A stretch of 64,000 nucleotides of DNA, taken from assembly GCA_964412965.1 (NCBI GenBank), contig CAYPQU010000002.1, positions 26,004-90,003 of the forward strand, read 5' to 3'. Shown here one piece after another: positions 1,568 to 64,000 of the stretch (position 1 is the first letter of the stretch; every line of letters begins with the position of its first letter). A model generated the notes under the pieces. That model was given only the letters and a program-made list of their open reading frames with translations, searched no databases and was not told the DNA's origin. This DNA is from an uncultured Candidatus Saccharibacteria bacterium. GTDB lineage: Bacteria; Patescibacteriota; Minisyncoccia; Phycocordibacterales; UBA9973. The position numbers were made by a program, and so were the translations under genes.

Positions 1568-2722
1568 ATGGAAATATCCTTCAAAAATAAAAAAGAGAAA
1601 GATAAAATAATTGCTATTTTTGATGTTGGTTCTACTAGTGTTGGAGGTGCTCGGGTTAAGCTGAGAAGAGAAGGAGATAATCGCACTCCTATTGTTTTAG
1701 ATTCCGTCCGCCTTGAAATGAGAGATAATACCGAAAGCTCAAACGAAGAATTAGAAAAAGAGGCTGTGCTTACATTAAAAAAGACAGCCGAGGCTTTGTT
1801 TAACAGAAAGATAGGAAAATTAGATGAGGTGGTTTGTGTGATAACAACTCCATGGAGTCACTCAAAAACCAAGAGAATAAGTTCCTGTAAACATTCAAAC
1901 TTTAAAGTAACCGAGGAATTAATTAACGAATTAATTAACAAAGAGATTTATTCTATTTCAAAAAATTTGGAAGGAAAGGATATCATAGAAAAACTAGTTA
2001 CCGAAATTAGCTTAGATGACAAACCCACAGCAGATCCGATAGGGGAAAGTTGTCAATTCTTGGATTTAAGCCTCTCTTATTCTTTTGCTAATAAAAACTT
2101 TGTAGACAAATCAAAAGAAACTCTGATGAGTGTATTTCATAGTACCCCCATTTCTTTTTCTTCTTTTTCGATATTAACTTATTTAATGATAAGAGATACT
2201 CATCCAGGCAATGAGTCACATTTGATTCTGGATGTAGCCGGAGAATCGACAGATATTAGTGTTATTAACAAAGGTATCTTTGGGGAAAAATTCTCATTTC
2301 CTTTTGGAAAAAAAACCTTGTTAAGAGAGCTTGCCTCAGAATTAAAAATAGAAAAAAGAGATGCATATGAGTTGTTTAAACTATATTACCAAAACAACTT
2401 ATCATTAGGTCATCGAGAGAAGCTTAAAAAATATTTTGAATCGAAAGAAAGATATTGGAGTGAGGAACTTAAAAAATGTTTAACAACCATCCCCAAGTAC
2501 CACAATCTTCCTAGTGTTGTGTTTTTAACAATAGACCCAGATATGAGAAAATGGTTTTTTGAAATTTTCAAAAATACAGAATTTTCTAATAAGATTACAC
2601 TGGATAAGAAATTTGAAATTATAATATTAGAAAAAGAAGATATGGTGAACATATGCGACCTAGAAGAAGGTTGTCACGATCCATTTATAATGATAGAAGC
2701 AATAGCTTTGTCTAGAAAATAA
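1568..2722 (+). CDS. FtsA/PilM-like actin-fold (ASKHA) ATPase
   Basis: IFDVGSTSVGGA and LILDVAGESTDISV resemble the phosphate-1/phosphate-2 motifs of FtsA/PilM; the SFPFG..LA tail resembles FtsA. Similarity judged by eye only. Confidence 0.45.
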   Translation: MEISFKNKKEKDKIIAIFDVGSTSVGGARVKLRREGDNRTPIVLDSVRLEMRDNTESSNEELEKEAVLTLKKTAEALFNRKIGKLDEVVCVITTPWSHSKTKRISSCKHSNFKVTEELINELINKEIYSISKNLEGKDIIEKLVTEISLDDKPTADPIGESCQFLDLSLSYSFANKNFVDKSKETLMSVFHSTPISFSSFSILTYLMIRDTHPGNESHLILDVAGESTDISVINKGIFGEKFSFPFGKKTLLRELASELKIEKRDAYELFKLYYQNNLSLGHREKLKKYFESKERYWSEELKKCLTTIPKYHNLPSVVFLTIDPDMRKWFFEIFKNTEFSNKITLDKKFEIIILEKEDMVNICDLEEGCHDPFIMIEAIALSRK

Positions 2723-8274: not shown

Positions 8275-8904
8275 ATGAATGACGATCAAAAAGAAATAAA
8301 CAAAACTGAAGAAGAATTAAATAAAGATCTTAATCAAGAATTAGAAAATACTCCAGATGTTGATTTTAAAGACATAGACATAGTTGCAAGTACAGAAGAT
8401 GGCGAATCTCTTCCCCCTAAAGATATAGTTAAAAAATTAAGAGAGGATATCAAAAAATTACAGAAAGAAAAGGAAGAATATTTAACAGGGTGGCAAAGAG
8501 CCAAGGCTGATTACGTGAATCTGCAAAAAGAGCTAGGCTTAATAAGAGTACTCACAACAAACATAACCAAAGAAAAGGTAACTGAAAAGTTAATTCCAAG
8601 TATAGATAGTTTTGAGTTGGCATTTCAAGATAAAACTAATTGGGAAAAAGTAGACGAGAGCTGGAGAACGGGAATGATTTCCATATACAAACAATTACTA
8701 AGTGGATTGAAAAGTCTTGAGATAGAAAGAATAGAAGAAAAAGATGTTCCTTTCAACCCCTTATTCCATGAATCTATTAAAATAACAAAAACCAAAGACA
8801 AAGAAAAAGATCATCATGTGGATGAAATCTTTCAAATTGGATACAAGATAGGGGATAAAGCTATTCGCCCTGCTAAAGTTTCTATTTTTGAGTTTGAAGA
8901 TTAA
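8275..8904 (+). CDS. grpE: nucleotide exchange factor GrpE
   Basis: Acidic N-terminus, coiled-coil LKKLREDIKKLQKEKEEY.....RAKADYVN, and the C-terminal beta domain F.P..HE.....VDEIFQIGYKIGDKAIRPAKV. ATG at 8275; the ORF track uses the TTG at 8260. Confidence 0.8.
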   Translation: MNDDQKEINKTEEELNKDLNQELENTPDVDFKDIDIVASTEDGESLPPKDIVKKLREDIKKLQKEKEEYLTGWQRAKADYVNLQKELGLIRVLTTNITKEKVTEKLIPSIDSFELAFQDKTNWEKVDESWRTGMISIYKQLLSGLKSLEIERIEEKDVPFNPLFHESIKITKTKDKEKDHHVDEIFQIGYKIGDKAIRPAKVSIFEFED

Positions 8905-9443
8905 AAATTCTTCAATAATTCTAGCCTTGTAGCTTCGTCTATTTTGTTTGTGACAAGTATTATCATTTCGGTAGTTAAACCGAGGTCGTTTTTGATATTA
9001 ATAAAAAGATTTTCGTATGGATAAACAGAAATCCAAACAGAATTTTTTACACACACAAAACCAGCTTTTTTTAATAAATAACGTAAAGCTTCTCTCTCGT
9101 TTTTTCTTTCCTCTGGTAAATCTAAAATTACTATTCGCCAATTACCATCCCAGTTTTTCAACATAATAGCGGTATCGTCATTTAGGGCATTGCTGTTAAT
9201 TTTCTTTCGCCCTTCTTCTGATAATCTAAAAAAAGGCTGCCTGTCTGATTGAAAGCAATCTAGAAGGCCCGAGGTTGATAGATTCTTTAGAGAACGGGAA
9301 ATAGCGTATTCTGTCTTGTTTTTAGCGTCTTGGCTTGTTTTAAGGCTATTTAAAGCCTCTCTTTTTAAGTCTTCTAGCGAGATAACATTTTTTCGGGCTA
9401 ATATTTTAAGTATTATTTTTTGAATAGGTGTATTTTTACTCAT
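8901..9443 (-). CDS. PaaX-family winged-helix transcriptional regulator
   Basis: N-terminal wHTH (IILKILARKNVISLEDL...RSLKNLSTSGLL) and the C-terminal WDGNWRIVILDLPEERKNEREALRYLLKKAGFVCVKNSVWIS, which matches the PaaX C-terminal signature. Divergent from grpE-dnaK. Confidence 0.5.
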   Translation of the reverse strand: MSKNTPIQKIILKILARKNVISLEDLKREALNSLKTSQDAKNKTEYAISRSLKNLSTSGLLDCFQSDRQPFFRLSEEGRKKINSNALNDDTAIMLKNWDGNWRIVILDLPEERKNEREALRYLLKKAGFVCVKNSVWISVYPYENLFINIKNDLGLTTEMIILVTNKIDEATRLELLKNF

Positions 9444-11536: not shown

Positions 11537-12616
11537 ATGGCAAAAGATTATTACGAAACATTAGGAATAGATAAAAAAGCCACAAAAGATGAGATCAAAA
11601 AAGCTTTTCATAAACTAGCCATGAAGCATCATCCTGATAAAAACGGAGGTGATGATAAAAAATTTAAAGAAATAAACGAAGCATACCAAGTTTTGTCAGA
11701 TGAGAAGAGGAGGGCTATGTATGACCAGTTCGGTTCTACTGGCCCTAATATGGGAGGAGGTGCTTATGGTGGGCAAGGTTTTGGAGGGTTTGATTTCTCT
11801 GGATTTCAAAATGCTCAAGGCTTCGACATGGGAGACTTGGGAGATATTTTTGGAGAATTTTTTGGTGGTGGAATGGGTGGTAAAAGATCAAGAAGAAAAG
11901 GTCAAGATATCGAATTAGCATTAGACCTATCTTTTGAAGAATCAATTTTTGGAGTTTCAAAAACTATAACAATAGAAAAACAATCCAGGTGTGATACCTG
12001 TAATGGAACTGGGGCCAAAACAGGAAGCAAGATGAATACCTGTAAAACTTGTGGTGGTAAGGGGCAAATTAAAGAAATCAAGAGATCTATTCTGGGTTCT
12101 TTTACAACAACTAGAGTATGTGAAAAATGTTTTGGAAATGGGCAAATACCAGACGAAAAATGTGGACGCTGTCGGGGAGATGGAGTTGTTAATAGAAAAG
12201 AAGATATCAAAATCGATATTCCTCCAGGAGTAGAAAATGGCCAGATATTAAAAATGTCTCAGGGGGGAGAATATATTCAAAATGGGATTCCTGGAGATTT
12301 GTTTTTGAGATTAAGAATCAAGAAGCATGATTTGTTTAGAAAAGACGGAGATAACCTCATTATGAATTTAAAAATAAAATTGACAGATTCATTGCTCGGT
12401 ACCACTCACAAATTCAAAAGCTTAGATGGAAAAGATTTGGAAATCAAAATACCCGAGGGGATTAAGCACAATGAACTGCTAAGAGTTAGGGGCAAGGGCG
12501 TTCCATCTGTTTTAGGCAGAGGAGACTTGATAGTTCGAGTGGAAATAAATACTCCTACCAAATTATCTAGAAAAGAAAGAGAACTTGTCGAAAAACTAAA
12601 AGAAGAAGGATTGTAA
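11537..12616 (+). CDS. dnaJ: chaperone DnaJ
   Basis: J-domain with HPD (HHPDKN), a Gly/Phe-rich linker and four CxxCxGxG zinc-finger repeats. Confidence 0.9.
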   Translation: MAKDYYETLGIDKKATKDEIKKAFHKLAMKHHPDKNGGDDKKFKEINEAYQVLSDEKRRAMYDQFGSTGPNMGGGAYGGQGFGGFDFSGFQNAQGFDMGDLGDIFGEFFGGGMGGKRSRRKGQDIELALDLSFEESIFGVSKTITIEKQSRCDTCNGTGAKTGSKMNTCKTCGGKGQIKEIKRSILGSFTTTRVCEKCFGNGQIPDEKCGRCRGDGVVNRKEDIKIDIPPGVENGQILKMSQGGEYIQNGIPGDLFLRLRIKKHDLFRKDGDNLIMNLKIKLTDSLLGTTHKFKSLDGKDLEIKIPEGIKHNELLRVRGKGVPSVLGRGDLIVRVEINTPTKLSRKERELVEKLKEEGL

Positions 12617-12622
12617 TAAATA

Positions 12623-12660
12623 AATCACCTTGCAAAATACAAGGTGATTTATTTATTATT
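12623..12660 (+). terminator. intrinsic terminator after dnaJ (10-bp perfect stem aatcaccttg/caaggtgatt)
   Basis: Seen directly; followed by tatttattatt. Confidence 0.7.
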
Positions 12661-12681
12661 AGGAAATGATATAATAAAGAT

Positions 12682-13527
12682 ATGATTTTTAATCTGTTGA
12701 AAAACAAGAAACAAGAAGGGTATACTCTAGTAGAAATTTTAGTGGTTATAGCTATTATAGGTATCTTATCCTCTGTGACCTTTGTCGCATTTAGCAGTGC
12801 TCGAGAGAAATCTAGAATGAGTACTGCTAAAATGTTTGAAGCTAACCATGTTGGAGTGTTGAGAAACTATCTAGTAGCGGAATGGAAATTCGAGGATCCA
12901 GTTAATAGGTATATAGATAGTTCAGGGAATGGGCACAATGGATCTTGCTCTGGATCAAGTTGTCCAACAGTTGCTACCGGAGAAGGTTTTAACGGTAAAG
13001 ATGCTATGATGTTTGACGGAATAAATGATGCTATCAACGCAGATTCCGGTACTCTATATTTTCCTTTAAATGTTTTTACTATGTGTGCTTGGGTTAAATC
13101 TTCAGGTCTAGGGGCTGGAATGGTACGGGCTGGTATTTTTGGAATTACTTACGGATTAACCATGTTTTTAACTGGAACTAGTTTTGTTTCTTACATAGAT
13201 GACGGGGTAAGTATCGTTGGAAGATCATTTTCTGTTAATCTATTAGATAACAAATTTCATCATTTATGCGTCAATTATGATGGAATAAAAAGAAATCTAT
13301 TTGTTGACGGAGACGTAAAAGGTAGTTTTACTACTACTTGGAGTGGTACTAGTAAATGGCCAACTCACACATCAAGAATAGGAGTAGAGCTTAATAACCC
13401 CGCCGTCTCTTATTTTAAAGGATTGATAGACGACATTAGGGTTTATTCTTCATATTTAACTGCTTCAGAAATTCAAAAACTATACGCCGAAGAATTATCA
13501 CAGAGAAAACTAGCTGAGGCTAATTAA
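12682..13527 (+). CDS. type IV pilin-like protein with a C-terminal LamG/concanavalin-A-like lectin domain
   Basis: Class III signal peptide KKQEG|YTLVEILVVIAIIGIL, the prepilin-peptidase/N-methylation motif. The C-terminus LIDDIRVYSSYLTASEIQKLY is the hallmark of LamG jelly-roll domains. A TGATATAAT extended -10 box ends ~10 nt before the ATG, so the mRNA may be leaderless. Confidence 0.6.
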   Translation: MIFNLLKNKKQEGYTLVEILVVIAIIGILSSVTFVAFSSAREKSRMSTAKMFEANHVGVLRNYLVAEWKFEDPVNRYIDSSGNGHNGSCSGSSCPTVATGEGFNGKDAMMFDGINDAINADSGTLYFPLNVFTMCAWVKSSGLGAGMVRAGIFGITYGLTMFLTGTSFVSYIDDGVSIVGRSFSVNLLDNKFHHLCVNYDGIKRNLFVDGDVKGSFTTTWSGTSKWPTHTSRIGVELNNPAVSYFKGLIDDIRVYSSYLTASEIQKLYAEELSQRKLAEAN

Positions 13528-13562
13528 CCTAGATAATATTACAACACTCATTTTTCATTCCA

Positions 13563-13577
13563 CTAGGTCGGACCTAG
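13563..13577. terminator. palindrome ctaggtc-g-gacctag between the convergent pilin-like gene and cysS
   Basis: Seen directly; short loop, so low confidence. Confidence 0.3.
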
Positions 13578-13588
13578 GGGGATTTAAA

Positions 13589-14968
13589 TTATATTTTAGT
13601 TATTTTATAGCCATCACCGGTGTCTTTTATTTCATAACCTAAATCTTTTATTTTATTCCTTAGCTCATCACTTTTTATCCAGTCTTTATTATCTCGAGCT
13701 AGCTTTCTTTCTTCTGCCATTTTGATTATTTCTTCAGGTGTTTCTTCTTGTTCTATTTTGTCTAAACCAAAACCAAAAACTCTATCGAAATCTAAAATAG
13801 TTGCTAGTTTGTCTTCATTGCTTACTCGTTTATCTTTTACTAAATCCCATAGAATAGACAAGGCTTTTGGACTTTCTAAATTATTATCCATAGCTTCAAT
13901 AAATTTATTTTTATATTCTTCGTTTATTTTTCCTTTTATATTACCTAAAGAAACAATAAAATCTCTCAGTCTAATGAGTGCGGTTTGGGTGCTGTGAACT
14001 GCTTCTTTGGTAAAATTAACTCGAGTAGTATAGCTAGAACTATATAACCACATTCTAAAGGCAACAGGATCAATTCCCATTTTTATCAAATCTTCTAAAA
14101 TATAAAAATTACCTAAAGATTTACTCATTTTTTGACCATCAACAAGTAAATGTTCGTTGTGAATAAAGTATTTAGCAAAGTCTCCACCTAGAGAACACTT
14201 AGATTGAGCAATTTCGTTTTCGTGATGGGGAAAGATCAGATCTACACCCCCTGTATGAATATCAAAAGTTTCTCCTAAATTTTTTACGCTCATAGCAGAA
14301 CACTCTATGTGCCACCCAGGACGACCCTTTTCTATTTCACTTGATTTACCCAAAATTTCTTCAGGATTCCAAAAAACATCACCGTCTTCTTCGCTCCATT
14401 TTTTCCAGAGAGCAAAATCTTCGGCATTTTCTTTGTCATACTCATCTTTACTTAGACGATTATCTGCATTCTCTTTTAAGTCAGATATTTTAAAGTTGGA
14501 AAGCTTACCGTAGTCATTAAATTTTCTAATATCAAAATAAATAGAACCGTCCTTTGCTTTATACGCAAAACCTTTTACTAAGAGCTCTTCTATGATTAAA
14601 AGCATTTCCTTAATATAGTCAGTGGCTTTAGTGTATTTTGTGGTAGGTAATATGTTTAATAAATCTCTTTCGCTAAAAAATAGGGAAGTGTAATATTCCG
14701 TGAAATCTTTTAGGGATAGCCCTTTTGATTGAGAGGTTTTTATAGTTTTATCATCTACATCAGTAATGTTCATTATGTGTTTAACCTTAAAACCTTTGTA
14801 TTCTAAATATCTTCTTAGAAGATCAGAGAAAACAAAAGCCCTCCAATTGCCAATGTGAATTTTGTTATATACAGTAGGTCCACAAGAATAGATACCAACC
14901 TCATCGTTTTTTAGTGGTACGAATTCTTCTTTATGTCTTTTAAGTGTATTAAATAAAACTAAGCTCAT
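13589..14968 (-). CDS. cysS: cysteinyl-tRNA synthetase
   Basis: HIGN (CGPTVYNKIHIGN) and KMSKS (KMSKSLGN) class-I motifs, and a CysRS-like zinc-site region. Confidence 0.9.
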   Translation of the reverse strand: MSLVLFNTLKRHKEEFVPLKNDEVGIYSCGPTVYNKIHIGNWRAFVFSDLLRRYLEYKGFKVKHIMNITDVDDKTIKTSQSKGLSLKDFTEYYTSLFFSERDLLNILPTTKYTKATDYIKEMLLIIEELLVKGFAYKAKDGSIYFDIRKFNDYGKLSNFKISDLKENADNRLSKDEYDKENAEDFALWKKWSEEDGDVFWNPEEILGKSSEIEKGRPGWHIECSAMSVKNLGETFDIHTGGVDLIFPHHENEIAQSKCSLGGDFAKYFIHNEHLLVDGQKMSKSLGNFYILEDLIKMGIDPVAFRMWLYSSSYTTRVNFTKEAVHSTQTALIRLRDFIVSLGNIKGKINEEYKNKFIEAMDNNLESPKALSILWDLVKDKRVSNEDKLATILDFDRVFGFGLDKIEQEETPEEIIKMAEERKLARDNKDWIKSDELRNKIKDLGYEIKDTGDGYKITKI

Positions 14969-24620: not shown

Positions 24621-24697
24621 TCTTTTGTAGCATTATCTATTTATGGTATAATTATTGTAATTAATTGTTTGTATTATTAACTTTAATTTTTAAAAAT

Positions 24698-26683
24698 ATG
24701 AGGCCAATAAAATTCTCTTTAATAGCAACTATTCTGGTAATACCATTCCTTTTCTCTGGGAAGATAATAGCAGAAGAACAATCTTCTACAGAAAAAACAA
24801 ATGAAGTAAAAAATATAGTTTTGGCAGAAATAAATGTCCAAGATTCTAAGATCATTTCACAAGAAGGAAACACCTTGGAGATTTCTTTTAACATAACTAA
24901 TCGCCAGGGAGCGCAATCAGGTGTTAAGTATGGGGTTCGTGTAGTAGAAAAAATAGGTAAAAAACAAAAAGTACTAGATGAATACGTTTTCCCTGAGGTG
25001 CTTAGCGTTCCAGCAAACACAGTCATACCTAGGACAGTTGTATATAATGGCCCTGTTAACTTAGAGGGAGAATACAATCTTTATGTTTCAGCCAGAAACT
25101 ACAGTGGCCTACCTTTAGGTACTGCAGACTTAGGAAAAGTGACTTTTTCTAAACAAATGGATACACTAGAAATCTTAAGCGAGACTTGTTCAACTGTTAT
25201 AGAGAGAGCAGACAGTGTTAAAGAAAATGAAAACAGAGAGGATTTGGTCTCAAAAGAAGATAAGATAATCTTGTCTTGTTATGTAAGGAACAACATGGAA
25301 ACTGAAGTGATAACTACTCCTGTTTACGAAACGCACTACAGAACTCTGTATGGAGAAGAAGCTTCTCAGCTAGGTGGAGATATTAGTCCAATACTGCTCA
25401 GACCACTAGAAGAAAAACTAGTAAATCTAACCTTGCCTAAGATAGCAGTTCCTCAATCATATGTTACAAAAATATACTTTGAAACTTCTGGGGTTAATTC
25501 TAATTACGTAACAATGTCTTACACCGTCTCCGGTCTCAGTGCCACAATCCAAAACGTCTCATTGGATAAGAACTCATACAAAGCAAACGAGACTGCAAAG
25601 ATTGCATTCTTCTGGACTTCATCTGCTACAAATAGAGAGGAATTAACATCCATCTCTCTAAAAGCTGATATTGTTAATAAGAATAAGAGATCTTGTATAG
25701 AGAGTCCAATAAATACCCAAATGGCAGGAGTTGGATTCATTGAAATACCAGTAACTATTAGTAAATCATGTGATGATCCTGAAGTAACCATCTCTCTTTA
25801 TGATGCATCAGGAAAAGTACTTGATCAAAAAGCTTTAATATTTGAAGCTAACGAAGAAACCAATCTATTCGCAGGAAAACTAGGTATCATTGCTATTGTA
25901 ATTATTGTTCTACTAGTATTAACTGGATTAATTCTTTACTTTAAGAATCTAAAAGACAAAGATGGAGGTGACAAACCAAAGAGTGGTCACATAGAAGGAG
26001 CTGTGCTTGCTATATTCTTCATTCTTTCTATGTTTCTAATTCCTGGTGGTAGTGCAAAGGCGGATACTTACTATATTACTGTTGATAGAATAGATAATTA
26101 TTACAACCCTGGAACAGCTTACGGTACTATAATCTTAAATACCAATCTAGATAAAAGTGACTATCTATACGGGGATGATATTAGACTAAGCTCTTCGGTT
26201 TATTATGATAAATACAATCATTGTTCAACCTTACCGCTCGACGCTATTTTAGGCAATGAAAGACAGAAGATAGACTATTCCGGAGATACTATTATTTGTG
26301 GGGGAGATGAACTTTATGCAGAAAATGTATTTCTGTCGGGCGCTATAGCAACTGGAAATTTAACAATTTCAGGAAATGCGTTTCTTGACGGAACTCAACA
26401 ATTAGCAATCAATTTAGATTTATCTTATAACGTGATTTCTAATTCTCCTATAAAAGTAGAGATAAAAGCCAACGACACCTCTGGTGAAATTACGATCAAC
26501 AAAGATGAGCCTGTTGCCATAACATGGTCTGTCCTTAATTCAAATGGGTCTACCTGCTACTGTACATACGATGGAGACAAGTCATGTGGACAACCAAGCA
26601 GCGGAGATGTTGTTAACCACAGAGGTTATTCCAATATAGAAGTAGGAAAAACGACAATATTTAAGCTAGAGTGTAAAAAATAA
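24698..26683 (+). CDS. large hypothetical secreted/membrane protein (signal peptide, internal TM segments, Cys-containing C-terminal domain)
   Basis: N-terminal MRPIKFSLIATILVIPFLFSG, TM GIIAIVIIVLLVLTGLILYF; no recognisable catalytic motif. ATG at 24698 preferred over the TTG at 24665. Confidence 0.4.
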   Translation: MRPIKFSLIATILVIPFLFSGKIIAEEQSSTEKTNEVKNIVLAEINVQDSKIISQEGNTLEISFNITNRQGAQSGVKYGVRVVEKIGKKQKVLDEYVFPEVLSVPANTVIPRTVVYNGPVNLEGEYNLYVSARNYSGLPLGTADLGKVTFSKQMDTLEILSETCSTVIERADSVKENENREDLVSKEDKIILSCYVRNNMETEVITTPVYETHYRTLYGEEASQLGGDISPILLRPLEEKLVNLTLPKIAVPQSYVTKIYFETSGVNSNYVTMSYTVSGLSATIQNVSLDKNSYKANETAKIAFFWTSSATNREELTSISLKADIVNKNKRSCIESPINTQMAGVGFIEIPVTISKSCDDPEVTISLYDASGKVLDQKALIFEANEETNLFAGKLGIIAIVIIVLLVLTGLILYFKNLKDKDGGDKPKSGHIEGAVLAIFFILSMFLIPGGSAKADTYYITVDRIDNYYNPGTAYGTIILNTNLDKSDYLYGDDIRLSSSVYYDKYNHCSTLPLDAILGNERQKIDYSGDTIICGGDELYAENVFLSGAIATGNLTISGNAFLDGTQQLAINLDLSYNVISNSPIKVEIKANDTSGEITINKDEPVAITWSVLNSNGSTCYCTYDGDKSCGQPSSGDVVNHRGYSNIEVGKTTIFKLECKK

Positions 26684-26736
26684 AATTGACTTTTACAGAA
26701 ATTTACTATTTAATTATATTAAACAGTAAATTAAAT

Positions 26737-27435
26737 ATGAAAAGGAATTGTAAATGCCTAGTATTTATGGTGTCTATAATGATACTCATACTAGGGACTC
26801 TGTTAGCCCAGAGTTGTGACAAGGACAAACCACCGGTTAGTCCTCCAATTACGTACACGGTGACTATTAACGTCATCGGTAAAATCCATGTTACGCTTCC
26901 GCAAAAGACTGGGATCGTACCTGGTAGTAATGTTGACATAACGATAGAACCAGATAGCCTTTATTCTGTTTACTCCATAAAAGAAAATGGGGTAAACATG
27001 AACATTATCCCTACAGACAAAAAATTGACATATTCCTTAAAAAATATCCAATCTAATAAAATGTTGGATATAGAAGCGATAGAAACAGGAATTATAAAAT
27101 TGTCGGTCCTAGAGCCGCCATTAATGTTAAAAAAGATTTCTTTTTACAGGGGCAAAGATGATGCATACCTAGGAGAACTTGTACTAGACCAAATAGATTT
27201 ATCAAGAAAATATTACCACTATTATCCCTCTATGGATATTAAGGTGATAAACCAAGATGGATCTATCTTTTGGCAACAAAAATGGAGCTTAAAATTAGGA
27301 GTATACCAAAGAGGAGATCAAATCCTTACTGTCGTTAAGAACACAGACAAAATACTGCAGTTGAAAGATAAACCATCTTTCGATCCTACTTATGGAGCAG
27401 AGCTTTATGTCATATATACATATGAAAGAAATTAA
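26737..27435 (+). CDS. hypothetical lipoprotein
   Basis: MKRNCKCLVFMVSIMILILGTLLAQSC, a signal peptide with a lipobox-like LAQSC. ATG at 26737 preferred over the TTG at 26686. Confidence 0.4.
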   Translation: MKRNCKCLVFMVSIMILILGTLLAQSCDKDKPPVSPPITYTVTINVIGKIHVTLPQKTGIVPGSNVDITIEPDSLYSVYSIKENGVNMNIIPTDKKLTYSLKNIQSNKMLDIEAIETGIIKLSVLEPPLMLKKISFYRGKDDAYLGELVLDQIDLSRKYYHYYPSMDIKVINQDGSIFWQQKWSLKLGVYQRGDQILTVVKNTDKILQLKDKPSFDPTYGAELYVIYTYERN

Positions 27436-31875: not shown

Positions 31876-33618
31876 ATGGAAAAAACACCTCGGTTTATAA
31901 AAGAATTTTCTAAAGAAAAATCACATCAAGAACGCGAACAAACAGCACGAGACATTAAAGAAAAACGTGTGGAATATTTTGTAGGAAAAAAAGATCTATC
32001 AGAAAGGCAAACCAGGTTACAAGAATCTATCGAAAATCAAGAACTAATTTTAAAGGAAAGACTAAAAAATATTGATAATCTTAATGATCAGATTTCTGAA
32101 ATTACGAACTCAGGACTTACTAAAATTTTAAATTATTTTAAACTAAAAAAGCTACAAGCAGATCTTGTTGTTGGTCAAAAAACTTATGAGGAATTAAAAC
32201 AACAACAGGACTTAGATAAAACAGAGCAACTATCTCTTTCTGAAAAACTAGAAGATGAAAAGAATCCTTTGGTAATGCAAGAATCTAAAAAAATATTAGA
32301 CAATTTTTACCAAAATCAAAAAGAAAAGTGGGTACAAAAAGAATACTCAAAAGAAGATATTGCTAAATATTTTTCTGAGGAGCACTTGTCGTCTCTATCT
32401 TTAGAAGACTATGTTTTGTTACTAAAAAGATTCCCTCGTGAAATGGTAGCTCACGTTACAAGGCAAGGAGTTCGAGATCATATTGGTATGATGTATCATA
32501 CTGCAGGAGAAGGTGAATATGCCGAGGGTTTCTTAAAAATGGTTGAAGATGGAAGATTGCGTTCACCACTCGGTGTTTATCTAACGGAGAACGAGAAGGA
32601 AAAAGCGATCACCAGATTTCTTCGTCTAGATAATTTTGAGAATAAAGATGAGGCCTTAGGTCATCTTGCTACTTTAACAGATGTCCAGCAGTACGAAAGC
32701 GGAAGTTATGCGGACAGAATGGCAATTCATTTTGCCACCGAAGAAGTTGCAGATAGTTATTATGGTTCCGAAAAAGGAAACGAAATTTTTATAGCATATC
32801 CTTCTGCTTTTATCGCATCGCAATATTATTTTAACGGACAGTTAAAAGAGGGTAATAGTGGTTATTGGAACGACCAATGGATTTGGGCCAACGAAGAACA
32901 CGGAATTGATTTAAATGCAGGGTTGATTTTTATTCCGGAAGAAGCAAGAGTTGATAAAAACACAGGTTCTCGTTACGAACTCGATGAAAACAAAAATCCA
33001 ATCAAAAATTTAGAATATTTAAACATCTTAAGAAAAGTCTTTGCCTCTGATGATTTTGATGACTTTGCTAAGCAGGTTATGGAAATAACTGGAAAATTAA
33101 GCAAAAAAGACGAACAAAATTTACTACCAAGCGAGCTAGAACTATTTAATAAGCTAGAACCATTTCGTCAAAAACTGGAAAACAATTATGGAATAAAAGA
33201 TCGACGACTCCAAAATTCAATTTTTGATTATCACACACTATTGTCTCTTACAGGTCTAAAAAATGAACCTGTAAGTACTCACAGTCCTGAATCGGTTATA
33301 GAAGAATCATTAGAAAAATCGGGTATTTTGTTTACTGAAGCAAAAAATACTATTAGCTCAAAACAATTCTGGGAAGAATACTTTGCTAAAAACCAAAGTA
33401 AGCGCCCTTCGAAAATTATCTACTATAAAGGGGAAGACCCCACTGGAGCTCTTAGGCAGTGGAGGAAAGAACAAGGTATTGATAAAACAACAAAAGATGA
33501 GAATTTAGGTTTTTCTGAGAGGAGCATTAGCCGGGATGCTCCCCAAGCTGTTGCAGGTCTAAGCCGTTTTAAAAATTTGGCGGAAAAAATAATCGAGGAT
33601 TACTTTGCGAAAAAATAA
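31876..33618 (+). CDS. hypothetical protein, 580 aa, no recognisable domain
   Basis: Long uninterrupted ORF with strong coding character and a coiled-coil-like N-terminal third. Confidence 0.4.
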   Translation: MEKTPRFIKEFSKEKSHQEREQTARDIKEKRVEYFVGKKDLSERQTRLQESIENQELILKERLKNIDNLNDQISEITNSGLTKILNYFKLKKLQADLVVGQKTYEELKQQQDLDKTEQLSLSEKLEDEKNPLVMQESKKILDNFYQNQKEKWVQKEYSKEDIAKYFSEEHLSSLSLEDYVLLLKRFPREMVAHVTRQGVRDHIGMMYHTAGEGEYAEGFLKMVEDGRLRSPLGVYLTENEKEKAITRFLRLDNFENKDEALGHLATLTDVQQYESGSYADRMAIHFATEEVADSYYGSEKGNEIFIAYPSAFIASQYYFNGQLKEGNSGYWNDQWIWANEEHGIDLNAGLIFIPEEARVDKNTGSRYELDENKNPIKNLEYLNILRKVFASDDFDDFAKQVMEITGKLSKKDEQNLLPSELELFNKLEPFRQKLENNYGIKDRRLQNSIFDYHTLLSLTGLKNEPVSTHSPESVIEESLEKSGILFTEAKNTISSKQFWEEYFAKNQSKRPSKIIYYKGEDPTGALRQWRKEQGIDKTTKDENLGFSERSISRDAPQAVAGLSRFKNLAEKIIEDYFAKK

Positions 33619-53943: not shown

Positions 53944-54690
53944 ATGAATAAATTTATTTTCAAAAAAATAATATTAATATTGCTAATTATTATCATTGTT
54001 ATCCTTATTGTTTTTAGTTTACTAAAAAATTTTAGTGTTAACAAAATTACAGATAGAGAGATATCAGTTGATAATAAAGAATATTGTTATTACAAAGAAG
54101 ATTTTAAGACAAGTGGTTATAGTGATGTCGCTTGGATGAAAATTTCAGAAAATGGAAATACCGTAAAGGGGGAATTTAGGAACCTACCAGCAGAAACAGA
54201 CTCCAAGGTTGGATTATTCACGGGCTTAATAATGAAATCAGACCTACAAAATAATATAAAAACCGCCGATGTTATCTGGAATACTTTTGCCGAAGGAATG
54301 AACAACAAAGAACAGTTAATTTTTGATTACGGGAAAGATTCTGCGATTGTTTATTTTGGTGAAATGCAAGAAGAAGGGGAGGGTGGTTTTTTTGTTTTTA
54401 AAAATAAAAATAATCTTTTTCCACAAAACAAAATGAACAGCATGGATTGCTTAGAACTTGAAGAGAAAATCAGTGTCGAACAATACATAAGAGAAAATAT
54501 TAAAAATATATCAAACACCAAAGAAGTTTTAGGCGGGAGCTGGTATGTTGCAAAGTTAAAAATAGACAACCAAAATAACACCGGAGAAGTTGAGTATGAG
54601 GATGGTCACATATTAGAGAAAGCTTCTTTTGATTACGAGTATGACATTGTGACAAAAAACATAAATGTCTTAAATTTTAAACAATTCTAA
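53944..54690 (+). CDS. hypothetical membrane-anchored protein
   Basis: N-terminal TM helix (ILILLIIIIVILIVFSLL); no motif recognised. Confidence 0.3.
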   Translation: MNKFIFKKIILILLIIIIVILIVFSLLKNFSVNKITDREISVDNKEYCYYKEDFKTSGYSDVAWMKISENGNTVKGEFRNLPAETDSKVGLFTGLIMKSDLQNNIKTADVIWNTFAEGMNNKEQLIFDYGKDSAIVYFGEMQEEGEGGFFVFKNKNNLFPQNKMNSMDCLELEEKISVEQYIRENIKNISNTKEVLGGSWYVAKLKIDNQNNTGEVEYEDGHILEKASFDYEYDIVTKNINVLNFKQF

Positions 54691-63245: not shown

Positions 63246-64000
63246 TTAAAACCAATTATCATCACTTGTTATTTTTCTCCTCAAATTATAACTATTTGCA
63301 TGCTCGAAATGTCCAAAATAAGATCTTATAACAGGCAGAAACTTTATAGAGTATAAGCCATCTTCTTTGTTTTTATTTTTATACATTTTGTCTTTAAACC
63401 TCCGAACCACCTTTCTTCTTACTAGAGTATGAGTCGGTTTAATATAATAACCAAGAAAGTCTATTCCATGATTAACCTGCCTTAGAAATATCTTATCGGG
63501 GGCCAATTTTAAATTTAACTTCTGATTAAGAAATAGATCAATTTTTTTTATCGTTTCTTCTAATCTTTCTTTGTCTTCATCTAGGATAATAAAATCATCA
63601 ACATATCTAAGATAACGATAAAATTTTAATTCATTTTTTATATAATGATCCAATTTATCTAAATAAATATTTGCAAAAAATTGGCTAGTTAAATTCCCTA
63701 TTGGTAAACCTTTATTTCTATCTCCATAAAACAAAGATTTGTGCTTAGGGACAACGCCTCTTGTATTATTCGCCCCTTTGAAAACATAATTAGATGTTGG
63801 ATCATGAAAAATAATCATTTTTGTTAGCCACAGTATTTCGTCTTTCCACGATTTATCTTTGTCACTTCTCACAATAATCATTTTCATTTCTTCGTATAGA
63901 ATATTTTTGTCTATATTTCTGAAAAATCCCTTGATATCCATCTTTAAATAATACAATCTTCTACCATCCTTTCCTCCTCTTGATATATGATATCTTAATT
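63246..64000 (-). CDS. reverse transcriptase, DGR-type motif set; C-terminal ~250 aa, with the 5' end beyond the window
   Basis: The frame is open to the window edge. RT motif 1 LKMDIKGFFRNID, motif 4 GLPIGNLTSQFFANIYL (the IGxxxSQ variant typical of diversity-generating-retroelement RTs rather than QGxxxSP), motif 5 YLRYVDDFIIL, motifs 6/7 (LNLKLAPDK, GIDFLGYYI), and a short thumb. Confidence 0.75.
   Translation of the reverse strand, partial: LRYHISRGGKDGRRLYYLKMDIKGFFRNIDKNILYEEMKMIIVRSDKDKSWKDEILWLTKMIIFHDPTSNYVFKGANNTRGVVPKHKSLFYGDRNKGLPIGNLTSQFFANIYLDKLDHYIKNELKFYRYLRYVDDFIILDEDKERLEETIKKIDLFLNQKLNLKLAPDKIFLRQVNHGIDFLGYYIKPTHTLVRRKVVRRFKDKMYKNKNKEDGLYSIKFLPVIRSYFGHFEHANSYNLRRKITSDDNWF

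Follow-up and report, generated by a model that had tools for sequence, protein, structure and literature searches.

The gene lying between dnaJ and cysS in the 64-kb stretch of DNA analyzed here (hereafter, the window) is best explained as encoding a protein of the type IV pilin class that carries a single LamG (concanavalin-A-like) jelly-roll where the small alpha/beta head would usually be. The joint explanation that we consider best, and reasonably likely, combines this LamG-headed pilin with a recombining core, a leaderless mRNA, and a role as a low-abundance surface binder located near the pilus tip.

Gene, genomic context, and product

The prepilin gene occupied a fixed housekeeping site, in the order dnaJ, pilin, cysS, with cysS convergent to the pilin gene. 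It is a stand-alone transcription unit that has its own extended -10 promoter and is set between the dnaJ terminator and cysS (Table 1). A preliminary description had placed it at 12666-13527; the open reading frame is real and its end was correct, but position 12666 belongs to a promoter-like box and coding begins at 12682, the first start codon past an in-frame TGA (12667-12669). Predicted removal of the leader from the 281-aa precursor would leave a processed pilin of 268 aa, with a mass of 29.2 kDa and a pI of 6.0. The window protein was already present in NCBI, and its named homologs came from Candidatus Paceibacterota. The gene thus comes from a tiny bacterium of the Paceibacteria type that is probably symbiotic.

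Table 1. Features at the dnaJ-pilin-cysS locus, with positions numbered along the window.
Feature	Position	Strand	Description
Left conserved arm (terminator, promoter, leader and alpha1 codons)	12570-12864		Delimited by identity to L091/L092
Intrinsic terminator of dnaJ	12613-12659	+	20-bp hairpin, then U-rich tail
Extended -10 element TGaTATAAT (TGATATAAT)	12667-12675	+	Read from the sequence; 6 nt separate TATAAT from the ATG
Prepilin gene	12682-13527	+	281 aa; N_methyl and Laminin_G_3 domains, predicted helix/sandwich, family statistics
ATG start codon / predicted transcription start	12682-12684	+	A lies 7 nt past the last T of the -10 element
Class III signal leader peptide MIFNLLKNKKQEG	12682-12720	+	13 aa; Pfam N_methyl, NCBIfam IV_pilin_GFxxxE, family position statistics
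Pilin alpha1 helix	12721-12864	+	Residues 14-61; AlphaFold helix 16-61, alignment to solved pilins
LamG / concanavalin-A-like beta-sandwich	12865-13461	+	Residues ~62-260; predicted to form the whole globular head
Hypervariable core cassette	12865-13425		Practically no alignment with L091/L092 (nt identity ~45%)
Right conserved arm (C-terminal codons, 3' intergenic spacer, last 242 nt of cysS)	13426-13830		Delimited by identity to L091
Conserved C-terminal helix (...SEIQKLYAEELSQRKLAEAN)	13462-13524	+	Helix 261-280
Weak hairpin, possible shared terminator of convergent pilin and cysS genes	13557-13583		MFE -12 kcal/mol, z = -0.8

Within the 64 kb, the pilin gene was an orphan among housekeeping genes. 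Motif scans and Pfam/NCBIfam searches of ~50 ORFs revealed no prepilin peptidase (Peptidase_A24), PilB/PilT, PilC, or second pilin in the window, while an ATPase of the FtsA/PilM fold at 1568-2722 was matched by Foldseek to both FtsA (3.6e-21) and PilM (7e-19) and is not assignable to either. With neither a prepilin peptidase nor any clear-cut pilus machinery gene in the window, processing and assembly are steps that we infer. LamG pilins of relatives had other surroundings, being found within a five-gene pilin cluster (L090), as three paralogs adjoining ComEC and a PilB-like MshEN+T2SSE ATPase (L089), and as a gene to which dprA is convergent and which it overlaps (L084). A pattern search of genome contigs using a generic pilin N-terminus, L[IV]E[LI][LM]VV[IV]AI, recovered mostly pilins of Planctomycetota and Lentisphaerota and was uninformative.

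Prepilin signal and alpha1 helix

In the product, a class III signal leads into an alpha1 helix of ~48 residues, after which come a LamG sandwich and, last, a short C-terminal helix that is conserved. The short hydrophilic leader MIFNLLKNKKQEG ends in Gly and is followed by the hydrophobic YTLVEILVVIAIIGILSSVTFVAF, with the motif QEG/YTLVEILVVIAIIGIL present near the N-terminus. Pfam N_methyl (PF07963) matched residues 9-33 (E 6e-8; 32.4 bits against a cut-off of 21.2), and NCBIfam IV_pilin_GFxxxE (TIGR02532) scored 28.3 bits against a cut-off of 16.3; these matches, like that to Laminin_G_3 below, are far over chance. Solved pilins aligned to residues 7-63, the best being geopilin (E 1.2e-6), with PilA and PilE also recovered. 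The alpha1 segment bears Tyr at +1, Glu at +5, Gly at +14, and ~21 hydrophobic residues, was modeled by AlphaFold as an extended N-terminal helix (residues 16-61), and would serve as both membrane anchor and filament-core element.

Position statistics from 61 family members agreed with the profile matches, and the canonical prepilin N-terminus noted in the preliminary description is upheld by both. Specifically, position -1 was G in 30, A in 27, and S in 4 members, and position +1 was F in 41 and Y in 20, the window protein having Tyr. L at +3 (L16) and E at +5 (E18) were universal (61/61 each), and G at +14 was present in 60/61. From established pilin biology, a prepilin peptidase would cut the 13-residue leader after Gly13 and methylate Tyr14, and alpha1 would dock the subunit in the helical core of a type IV pilus, leaving the LamG domain exposed.

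A LamG domain in place of the pilin head

Pfam Laminin_G_3 (PF13385) matched residues 113-265 (E 6.1e-19; 69.1 bits against a cut-off of 27.6), spanning model positions 2-151 of 151, and the predicted structure was the two-sheet jelly-roll beta-sandwich of the LamG superfamily. The GLIDDIRVYSSYLTASEIQKLY motif, present near the C-terminus, was confirmed as well, so that the earlier proposal of a LamG domain following the prepilin N-terminus holds. The same proposal spoke of a pilin fused to LamG; both domains are there, but a separate pilin globular module is not. The classical pilin head, an antiparallel beta-sheet on alpha1-C, is absent from the predicted structure, in which the LamG sandwich begins at residue ~62-64, directly after alpha1, with only ~2 residues between the helix end (61) and the first LamG strand (64). 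The model thus indicates that the usual pilin head is replaced, not supplemented, by LamG. The orientation of alpha1 to LamG is uncertain in the AlphaFold model (pLDDT 58-63 over residues 31-60).

More than 200 homologs had the same two-domain layout of N_methyl and Laminin_G_3. The closest structures to the LamG part were carbohydrate- or ganglioside-binding modules. Conserved W68, D79, W137, G210, D250, and R253 look like fold-core positions, and conservation across the family pinpoints no ligand-binding residues. The LamG part is acidic (pI 5.4), which disfavors a role in DNA binding. A match to the NCBIfam 'TafC fimbrial protein', a haloarchaeal Tat-fimbria subunit, was rejected as an identity, scoring 29.9 bits against a cut-off of 410 and reflecting merely shared LamG similarity. 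The same type of LamG module also occurs in giant non-pilin surface proteins, in 6-26 repeats.

Promoter, terminator, and predicted leaderless layout

The dnaJ terminator folded at -23.3 kcal/mol (z = -9.4), with 0/200 shuffles folding as well, and the hairpin is kept in orthologous loci despite changes in both arms (ATCACCTTG/CAAGGTGAT here versus GCCACTCTG/CAGGGTGGT in L087). Upstream, dnaK and dnaJ form an operon, from which this terminator separates the pilin gene. At the other end of the gene, the weak hairpin (Table 1) was rejected as a terminator, its stability being indistinguishable from that of shuffles.

Inspection of the sequence revealed an extended -10 element with no recognizable -35 in the pilin promoter. 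TGnTATAAT was invariant in seven alleles (window, L081, L082, L083, L086, L087, and L088), and the distance from the -10 element to the ATG was exactly 6 nt in all of them despite the varying sequence of the spacer (aaagat, aaaaac, aaaaat, aatttt, agtaat, aaatat). A pyrimidine stood directly 5' of the A of the ATG in all seven, and upstream of the pilin ATG there is no room for a Shine-Dalgarno sequence. This geometry and its conservation suggest that the first transcribed base would be the A of the ATG and the mRNA leaderless, and the comparison across alleles lends support to the leaderless reading proposed in the preliminary description.

The leaderless layout appears to be the genome-wide default and not special to the pilin gene. 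Among the 56 genes of the window, 19 (about a third) had a -10-like hexamer 6-9 nt from the ATG, nine of these with the TG extension, and a Shine-Dalgarno-like motif, even as a 4-mer, preceded only five. A generic promoter scan returned 25 sites against 17.9 ± 4.1 in shuffles; with counts so near those of shuffles in a sequence of 33% GC, single consensus matches mean little. TGATATAAT was absent from that scan because it requires a -35 hexamer, and our promoter call rests on comparative and positional evidence in its place. In the literature, we found nothing specific on leaderless translation in CPR.

A hypervariable core between conserved arms

Comparison with the L091/L092 lineage, for which backbone identity to the window is 81-82%, exposed two arms that reached 98-100% in codons 1-61, the intergenic spacer, and the end of cysS. 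In the left arm, the terminator and promoter were 93.8% identical to L091/L092 and codons 1-61 were 98.4% identical, whereas the adjacent dnaJ body reached just 80.8%. In the right arm, identity to L091 was 87.3% over the C-terminal codons and complete over the intergenic spacer (61/61) and the last 242 nt of cysS (242/242), with 81.8% over the remaining cysS. Arms more alike than the backbone, enclosing divergent cores, argue for recombinational cassette exchange.

Close relatives displayed the same pattern. The DnaK and DnaJ proteins of L081 and L082 were 100% identical, and their flanks were 99.6-99.8% identical (37 mismatches in 10 kb upstream, 4 in ~1.9 kb downstream), with pilins 63% identical and a core region at 45-67% nucleotide identity. 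Likewise, L083 and L086 shared DnaK at 100%, DnaJ at 99%, and pilins at 54%. Between the window and the P0016 pilin, identity was 100% at the N-terminus, 15% in the core, and 93% at the C-terminus. Overall, at least four LamG core classes (14-30% amino acid identity) were joined to conserved N- and C-termini, the C-terminal helix being 69-97% identical among alleles of the dnaJ-cysS clade, the cores of which were ~15% identical. The LamG core is thus a recombining cassette, with deeply divergent classes swapped among strains and lineages via the conserved flanking arms. This population-level swapping is the new result, and the wholesale nature of the swap is as expected for a surface recognition protein.

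Two other sources of hypervariation were rejected. For a diversity-generating retroelement (DGR) mechanism, no template repeat was present in the 64 kb or the related loci, and the differences between alleles, comprising indels and all substitution types across ~560 nt, were not adenine-restricted. Silent cassettes of the pilE/pilS type were absent from the 64 kb, in which blastn and tblastn recovered no second pilin copy, and from seven related loci around other alleles (2.7-21 kb each); partial pilin copies were lacking in both. Separately, an RT-like ORF was located at the end of the window.

Proposed role and alternatives

An adhesin role for the LamG pilin is plausible. Most likely, the pilin would be of low abundance, sited at or near the pilus tip, and its LamG domain would bind a glycan or polymer exposed on the surface of a partner or host cell. 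Counting against this role, a strong promoter serving the gene alone and hypervariability between strains are traits more typical of major than of minor pilins.

We consider it rather unlikely, although the leading alternative, that the protein is the major structural pilin, in which case the whole filament would be a LamG-headed polymer, that is, a thick lectin-coated pilus, as opposed to a filament with a rare tip subunit. The monocistronic gene with its consensus extended -10 promoter and own terminator context fits such a pilin, as does the lack of any other pilin in the 64-kb window. Major pilins are the classic case of allelic replacement between strains, for example in the recombination of Moraxella pilA (PMC6296526). 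The pilin part consists of alpha1 alone, and the head joins it directly, as it does in ordinary major pilins; by our own estimate a 29-kDa subunit with a rise of ~10 Å would make a filament of only ~7-9 nm. In contrast, the gene's distant relatives are one of five pilin genes (L090) or several paralogs (L089), a minor-pilin pattern; the characterized lectin-module pilin, PilC, is minor and modeled at the tip; and solved major pilins are far smaller (≤208 aa among the structure matches).

The neighbors of the LamG pilins in relatives bear on a further alternative, a subunit of a competence (DNA-uptake) pseudopilus or other short endopilus instead of an adhesive pilus. DNA-uptake genes lie beside them, namely dprA in L084 and, in L089, ComEC and a Lactamase_B protein, which adjoin two of the LamG pilins, and two reports describe Patescibacteria as naturally competent in a type IV pili-dependent manner (PMC10633639, PMC10187176). 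We find this improbable nonetheless, given that the neighbors at the window locus are dnaJ and cysS, that the LamG part is acidic and structurally closest to carbohydrate- or ganglioside-binding modules, and that the core is the most variable part, whereas a DNA receptor should be conserved. The chances are also poor that the protein is never polymerized, its class III signal merely anchoring or releasing a surface lectin, or the protein itself being a substrate secreted by the pilus machinery. The lack of machinery or partner pilins nearby in the 64 kb and the LamG repeats of giant surface proteins are compatible with that idea, but the features needed for filament packing (E at +5, G at +14, and the ~48-residue alpha1) are too strictly conserved to favor it.

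Under the tip-adhesin reading, core diversity would be maintained by diversifying or frequency-dependent selection, acting on partner specificity or on escape from pilus-targeting phages. That the diversity is instead neutral or artefactual, arising from relaxed constraint, paralog mix-ups, or chimeric contigs, is very unlikely: although all alleles came from short-read metagenome assemblies, each was a full-length ORF with Pfam N_methyl and Laminin_G_3, present in one copy per locus with no partial copies (64 kb and seven loci), the same allele and flanks were recovered from independent runs (L091 and L092), and relaxed constraint is excluded as the cause, since identity changes abruptly at the edges of the divergent region and is higher in the arms than in the backbone.

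Significance

The locus bears on partner recognition by ultrasmall Patescibacteria. Among these, the Paceibacteria branch is much less studied than Saccharibacteria, in which type IV pili are, to our knowledge, the sole appendages so far shown to matter for attachment. The locus described here offers a compact and easily spotted candidate recognition subunit. Identical backbones, swapped binding domains, and arms above genome conservation are the signature expected at an interaction interface.

We tentatively suggest, as a possibility that we hold with less confidence than the role above, that the dnaJ-pilin-cysS locus is a dedicated specificity switch of Paceibacteria-type episymbionts, in which exchangeable LamG cassettes traded by recombination would set contact with partners or phages. 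A constant docking helix and a constant C-terminal helix would frame the cassette, and populations would keep at least four ancient cassette classes. Transformation, followed by homologous recombination in the conserved arms, would move these classes between cells and would not stop at species-level boundaries. The cassette carried might then decide which partner or host surface is grasped, or which pilus-specific phage grasps the cell. If true, this would give uncultivated CPR bacteria a genetic determinant of host range that lends itself to direct testing. In existing metagenomes, the cassette classes of the locus could be tracked against co-occurring hosts or phages.

Comparison with known systems

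The combination of N_methyl and PF13385 is among the frequent modular-pilin architectures, with several survey representatives from CPR phyla (Raynaud et al. 2021, PMC8179133). Being already known and common in Paceibacterota, the architecture is not surprising, nor is the leaderless layout. The window protein has IPR012902 (N_methyl) together with the non-pilus extra domain PF13385, a pair named in that survey; modular pilins as described there have a complete small pilin module and a short linker, whereas the pilin module of the window protein is reduced to alpha1. Paceibacterota proteins annotated as 'LamG-like jellyroll fold' or 'prepilin-type N-terminal cleavage/methylation' (e.g., MFA6340708.1) are 255-315 aa in length and share both Pfam domains and the conserved motifs, the named family members being 24-34% identical to the window pilin. 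Members of the dnaJ-cysS clade have Tyr at +1 and a 13-residue leader, while many other Paceibacterota members have Phe at +1 and a leader of 4-8 residues.

The PilC of Streptococcus sanguinis is a lectin-module minor pilin modeled at the pilus tip (Shahin et al. 2023, PMC9934059; PDB 7oa7/7oa8). It shares with the window pilin a class III signal peptide and a ConA/LamG-type beta-sandwich, at a sequence identity of merely ~13-14%, and glycan binding by the window pilin is putative. PilC is a 52.8-kDa protein comprising a short pilin moiety, an Ig-like module, and the lectin, whereas the 29-kDa window pilin has no Ig spacer, its LamG domain following straight after alpha1. Moreover, the PilC gene is in a pil operon, unlike the orphan between dnaJ and cysS. 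Among Patescibacteria, the minor pilins of Nanosynbacter lyticus TM7x include PilX1, with a jelly-roll-like C-terminal domain, and PilX2, with a beta-propeller and required for host binding, both proposed as adhesin components of the pilus used in episymbiosis (PMC12206443). Compared by description only, these resemble the window pilin as Patescibacterial pilins with a bulky binding-type domain. The window pilin differs in having a textbook class III signal and an orphan gene.

Allelic or recombining pilins include the Pseudomonas aeruginosa pilA groups, the Dichelobacter fimA serogroups, and Moraxella pilA (see also PMC6296526 and PMC2777410). Such loci and the window locus have in common a conserved alpha1-coding segment, an exposed part that diverges, and a fixed chromosomal site at which homologous recombination replaces alleles. 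The window locus differs from them in that an entire LamG domain of ~190 residues is swapped, with classes only 14-30% identical, that the conserved C-terminal helix, together with the 3' end of cysS, makes up its second arm, and that the cassette travels without accessory or glycosylation genes. With Neisseria pilE/pilS and with DGRs, the window locus shares hypervariation of a surface-exposed binding protein; in contrast to both, it diverges along the full length of the domain, indels included, and the variation lies between strains and not within a genome.

A LamG-headed prepilin at a housekeeping locus

The pilin gene, located between dnaJ and cysS, starts at the first start codon past an in-frame TGA (12667-12669). 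The preliminary description had proposed a prepilin fused to a LamG domain and expressed from a leaderless mRNA; all three components were supported, while the gene start that it gave, 12666, marks a promoter-like box and coding begins at 12682. The protein ends it had quoted were present, the translation opening with MIFNLLKNKKQEG/YTLVEILVVIAIIGILSSVTFVAF and closing with GLIDDIRVYSSYLTASEIQKLYAEELSQRKLAEAN. Pfam searches recovered N_methyl at residues 9-33 (E 6e-8) and Laminin_G_3 at residues 113-265 (E 6.1e-19, 69 bits versus a cut-off of 27.6), both over cut-off, as was the NCBIfam prepilin-type cleavage/methylation domain; these domain calls are well above chance.

Residues 7-63 aligned with solved pilins (geopilin, PilA, and PilE), and the remainder aligned weakly with LamG-type modules. 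The AlphaFold model, with 61 homologs as input (mean pLDDT 85.4, pTM 0.77), comprised a disordered leader at the N-terminus, a single long helix (alpha1, residues 16-61), a LamG-type beta-sandwich of ~14 strands (residues 64-255, mostly pLDDT >90), and a C-terminal helix (residues 261-280). Moreover, an exhaustive profile search aligned residues ~62-270 with single repeats of giant multi-LamG proteins (1,300-7,400 aa) at 28-33% identity, placing a domain boundary directly after alpha1. Because LamG starts there, the protein is predicted to lack a distinct pilin beta-sheet module, and LamG itself makes up the head. This module type (residues 62-270, window 12865-13491) is repeated many times in the giant proteins, with 45,625 matches at E<=1e-3 in a library of 1.8 billion proteins, and the similarity suggests that pilin heads and giant surface proteins share a common module pool.

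Across 61 family members, the class III signal was strictly conserved at pilin-defining positions, as expected of the prepilin proposed initially: position -1 was G (30), A (27), or S (4), +1 was F (41) or Y (20), +3 and +5 were invariably L and E, and +14 was G in all but one (60/61). Conservation of this strength argues for real filament-type packing, beyond a mere cleavable anchor. The mature pilin is predicted to have 268 aa, a mass of 29.2 kDa, and a pI of 6.0 (5.4 for the LamG part). Under the proposed mechanism, transcription would begin on the ATG, prepilin peptidase would cut after Gly13 and methylate Tyr14, and alpha1 would enter the pilus core, leaving the LamG head exposed.

Features of the window
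Position	Strand	Feature	Details
1568-2722	+	FtsA/PilM-fold ATPase	384 aa
2725-4062	+	Single-pass (bitopic) membrane protein	445 aa
8901-9443	-	PaaX_M-domain (Cas2-like fold) putative regulator	Divergent, between grpE and dnaK
12613-12659		Terminator-like 20-bp hairpin with U-rich tail	Directly past dnaJ stop; -23.3 kcal/mol, z = -9.4
12667-12675	+	TGaTATAAT	Followed by six nt, then pilin ATG
12682-13527	+	Pilin ORF	281 aa
16842-16975	-	Structured leader copy	Between dnaB and recR
24665-26683	+	ORF	672 aa
26686-27435	+	ORF	249 aa
31876-33618	+	ORF	580 aa
35582-36220	-	IS200-like Y1 transposase	Between gatB and gap; Y1_Tnp, E 1.3e-8
53944-54690	+	ORF	248 aa
62830-63072		Membrane ORF	80 aa
63073-63205	-	Structured leader copy	Upstream of the 80-aa ORF; preceded by TATAAT box
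63246-63956	-	Reverse-transcriptase-like ORF	Window edge; RVT_1, E 1.9e-14, model positions 69-205 only

Probable leaderless layout

Upstream of the pilin ATG there is neither a -35 element nor space for a Shine-Dalgarno sequence. The TGnTATAAT box and the spacing of exactly six nt were retained in all seven alleles at this locus (the window and the related contigs L081, L082, L083, L086, L087, and L088), among which the spacer sequence differed and the base before the A of the ATG was always a pyrimidine. With this conserved box and spacing, the A falls where transcription canonically starts, 7 nt past the -10 element and in Y-R context, giving good comparative support to a leaderless pilin transcript.

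Within the window, a -10-like hexamer ended 6-9 nt ahead of the ATG in 19 of 56 genes (background ~1.4 per offset), for example at 1568, 8901-9443 (minus strand), 18473, 31532, 34141, 39608, 42469, 46242, 52247, and 56757. TG-extended hexamers lay mostly at offsets 6-11 (10/13, nine at 6-9), and a Shine-Dalgarno-like motif, even a 4-mer, preceded only five of the 56 genes. In the source organism, leaderless or near-leaderless expression seems to be the norm and is not peculiar to the pilin gene; a literature search found no description of such a norm in CPR bacteria.

A recombining pilin cassette

Comparison of contigs exposed near-identical backbones carrying highly different pilins. L081 and L082 share DnaK and DnaJ at 100% aa identity and have 37 mismatches in 10 kb upstream and 4 in ~1.9 kb downstream, versus 63% aa identity for the pilin, with core nucleotide identity down to 45-67%. 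Likewise, L083 and L086 (DnaK 100%, DnaJ 99% aa) carry pilins of 54% aa identity. We divided 23 close alleles into N-terminus (1-70), core (71-252), and C-terminus (253-281). The window allele and P0016 were 100%, 15%, and 93% identical in these segments, respectively, versus 44%, 66%, and 55% for P0010. There were at least four core classes (mutual identity 14-30%) and three leader types, each paired with several core classes.

Nucleotide comparison with L091/L092, a lineage ~81% identical to the window in its backbone, gave 80.8% in the dnaJ body, 98.4% in the leader and alpha1 codons, ~45% in the LamG core, 61/61 nt in the 3′ intergenic spacer, 242/242 in the last 242 nt of cysS, and 81.8% in the rest of cysS. 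The arms flanking the core are thus more alike than the backbone, which constraint alone cannot account for; they point to lineages having exchanged this DNA recently, and the breakpoints lie near 12570, 12865, 13425, and 13840. Neither silent pilin copies nor template repeats were found in the window or related loci, so that pilS-type and DGR-type variation was rejected, pointing to allelic replacement between genomes.

Relatives, neighborhood, and probable role

The N_methyl plus Laminin_G_3 architecture (255-315 aa) was present in >200 proteins, the named homologs being from Candidatus Paceibacterota and labeled either 'LamG-like jellyroll fold domain-containing protein' or 'prepilin-type N-terminal cleavage/methylation domain-containing protein'. 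An NCBI entry already exists for the window protein. Its closest relatives (39-75% identity) occupy the same locus, preceded by grpE, a PaaX-like gene, dnaK, and dnaJ, and followed by cysS and corA; one 60% relative lies between topA and dprA. More distantly, a LamG pilin belongs to a five-gene pilin cluster (L090, 9419-12423), three paralogs stand in tandem next to ComEC and a PilB-like ATPase (L089, 4335-6016 and 10001-10834), and in L084 (2599-4308) the pilin gene is convergent with, and overlaps, dprA. The L090 and L089 neighborhoods provide the pilus context that would be expected. A link to DNA-uptake genes recurs in L089 and L084.

The 64-kb window yielded no second prepilin motif, GspE-type ATPase, A24 peptidase motif, or T2SSF protein. 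Its only possible pilus machinery is the Paceibacterota-specific ATPase at 1568-2722, which has no Pfam family and is predicted to adopt an actin-like ATPase fold (pLDDT 89); Foldseek matched FtsA (3.6e-21) and PilM (7e-19), which were not distinguishable. This ATPase and the membrane protein directly after it may belong to either divisome or pilus machinery. Most of the few L081/L082 backbone differences fall in that membrane protein.

We favor a role for the pilin as a low-abundance, tip-proximal putative adhesin, given the analogy to Streptococcus sanguinis PilC, a lectin-module pilin modeled in the tip complex (PMC9934059), the bulky binding-type domains of saccharibacterial PilX1 and PilX2 (PMC12206443), and the presence of family members in multi-pilin clusters. 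The main rival, that it is the major pilin, is consistent with its strong stand-alone promoter and with its hypervariability, a trait typical of major pilins. An acidic, hypervariable head makes involvement in DNA uptake less likely. Pilin diversity may be selected by either partner specificity or phage evasion.

Other elements of the window

The structured leader (two copies of ~125 nt, 78% identical) has a 14-bp long-range helix in which the 5′ end pairs with sequence abutting and including the AUG. It had no match in Rfam, and neither L083 nor L088 has it ahead of recR, dnaB and recR being separated there by just 22 and 9 nt, respectively. The leader may act as a translational-control RNA or represent a small mobile element. 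The reverse-transcriptase-like ORF, among very few window genes with a strong Shine-Dalgarno-like sequence (aggaggaaagg), could derive from a group II intron, retron, or DGR and may be truncated; no pilin-related template repeat was detected. The PaaX_M ORF sits where one would expect a heat-shock repressor, and L081 has an additional copy, located between rplU and recR (13438-13938), that the window lacks. Four ORFs had no significant Pfam or NCBIfam family (24665-26683, 26686-27435, 31876-33618, and 53944-54690), the first two lying within the mraY-ftsW-murG cell-wall cluster, in the expected place of a penicillin-binding protein or FtsQ.

Comparison with known modular pilins

A survey of modular pilins by Raynaud et al. 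counted IPR012902+PF13385 as a frequent architecture and drew several of its architecture representatives from CPR phyla (PMC8179133); hence this kind of pilin is already known and the family already annotated. Unlike the modular pilins surveyed, however, the window pilin has its pilin module cut down to alpha1, possesses a conserved C-terminal helix, and is encoded by an orphan gene at a housekeeping locus that behaves as an exchangeable cassette. Its architecture and leaderless layout are ordinary for the source lineage. Replacement of pilin alleles is familiar from other bacteria, and our literature search found no report of it in Patescibacteria. The cassette-like population structure makes the pilin locus a practical candidate determinant of host or phage interaction in uncultivated Paceibacteria.
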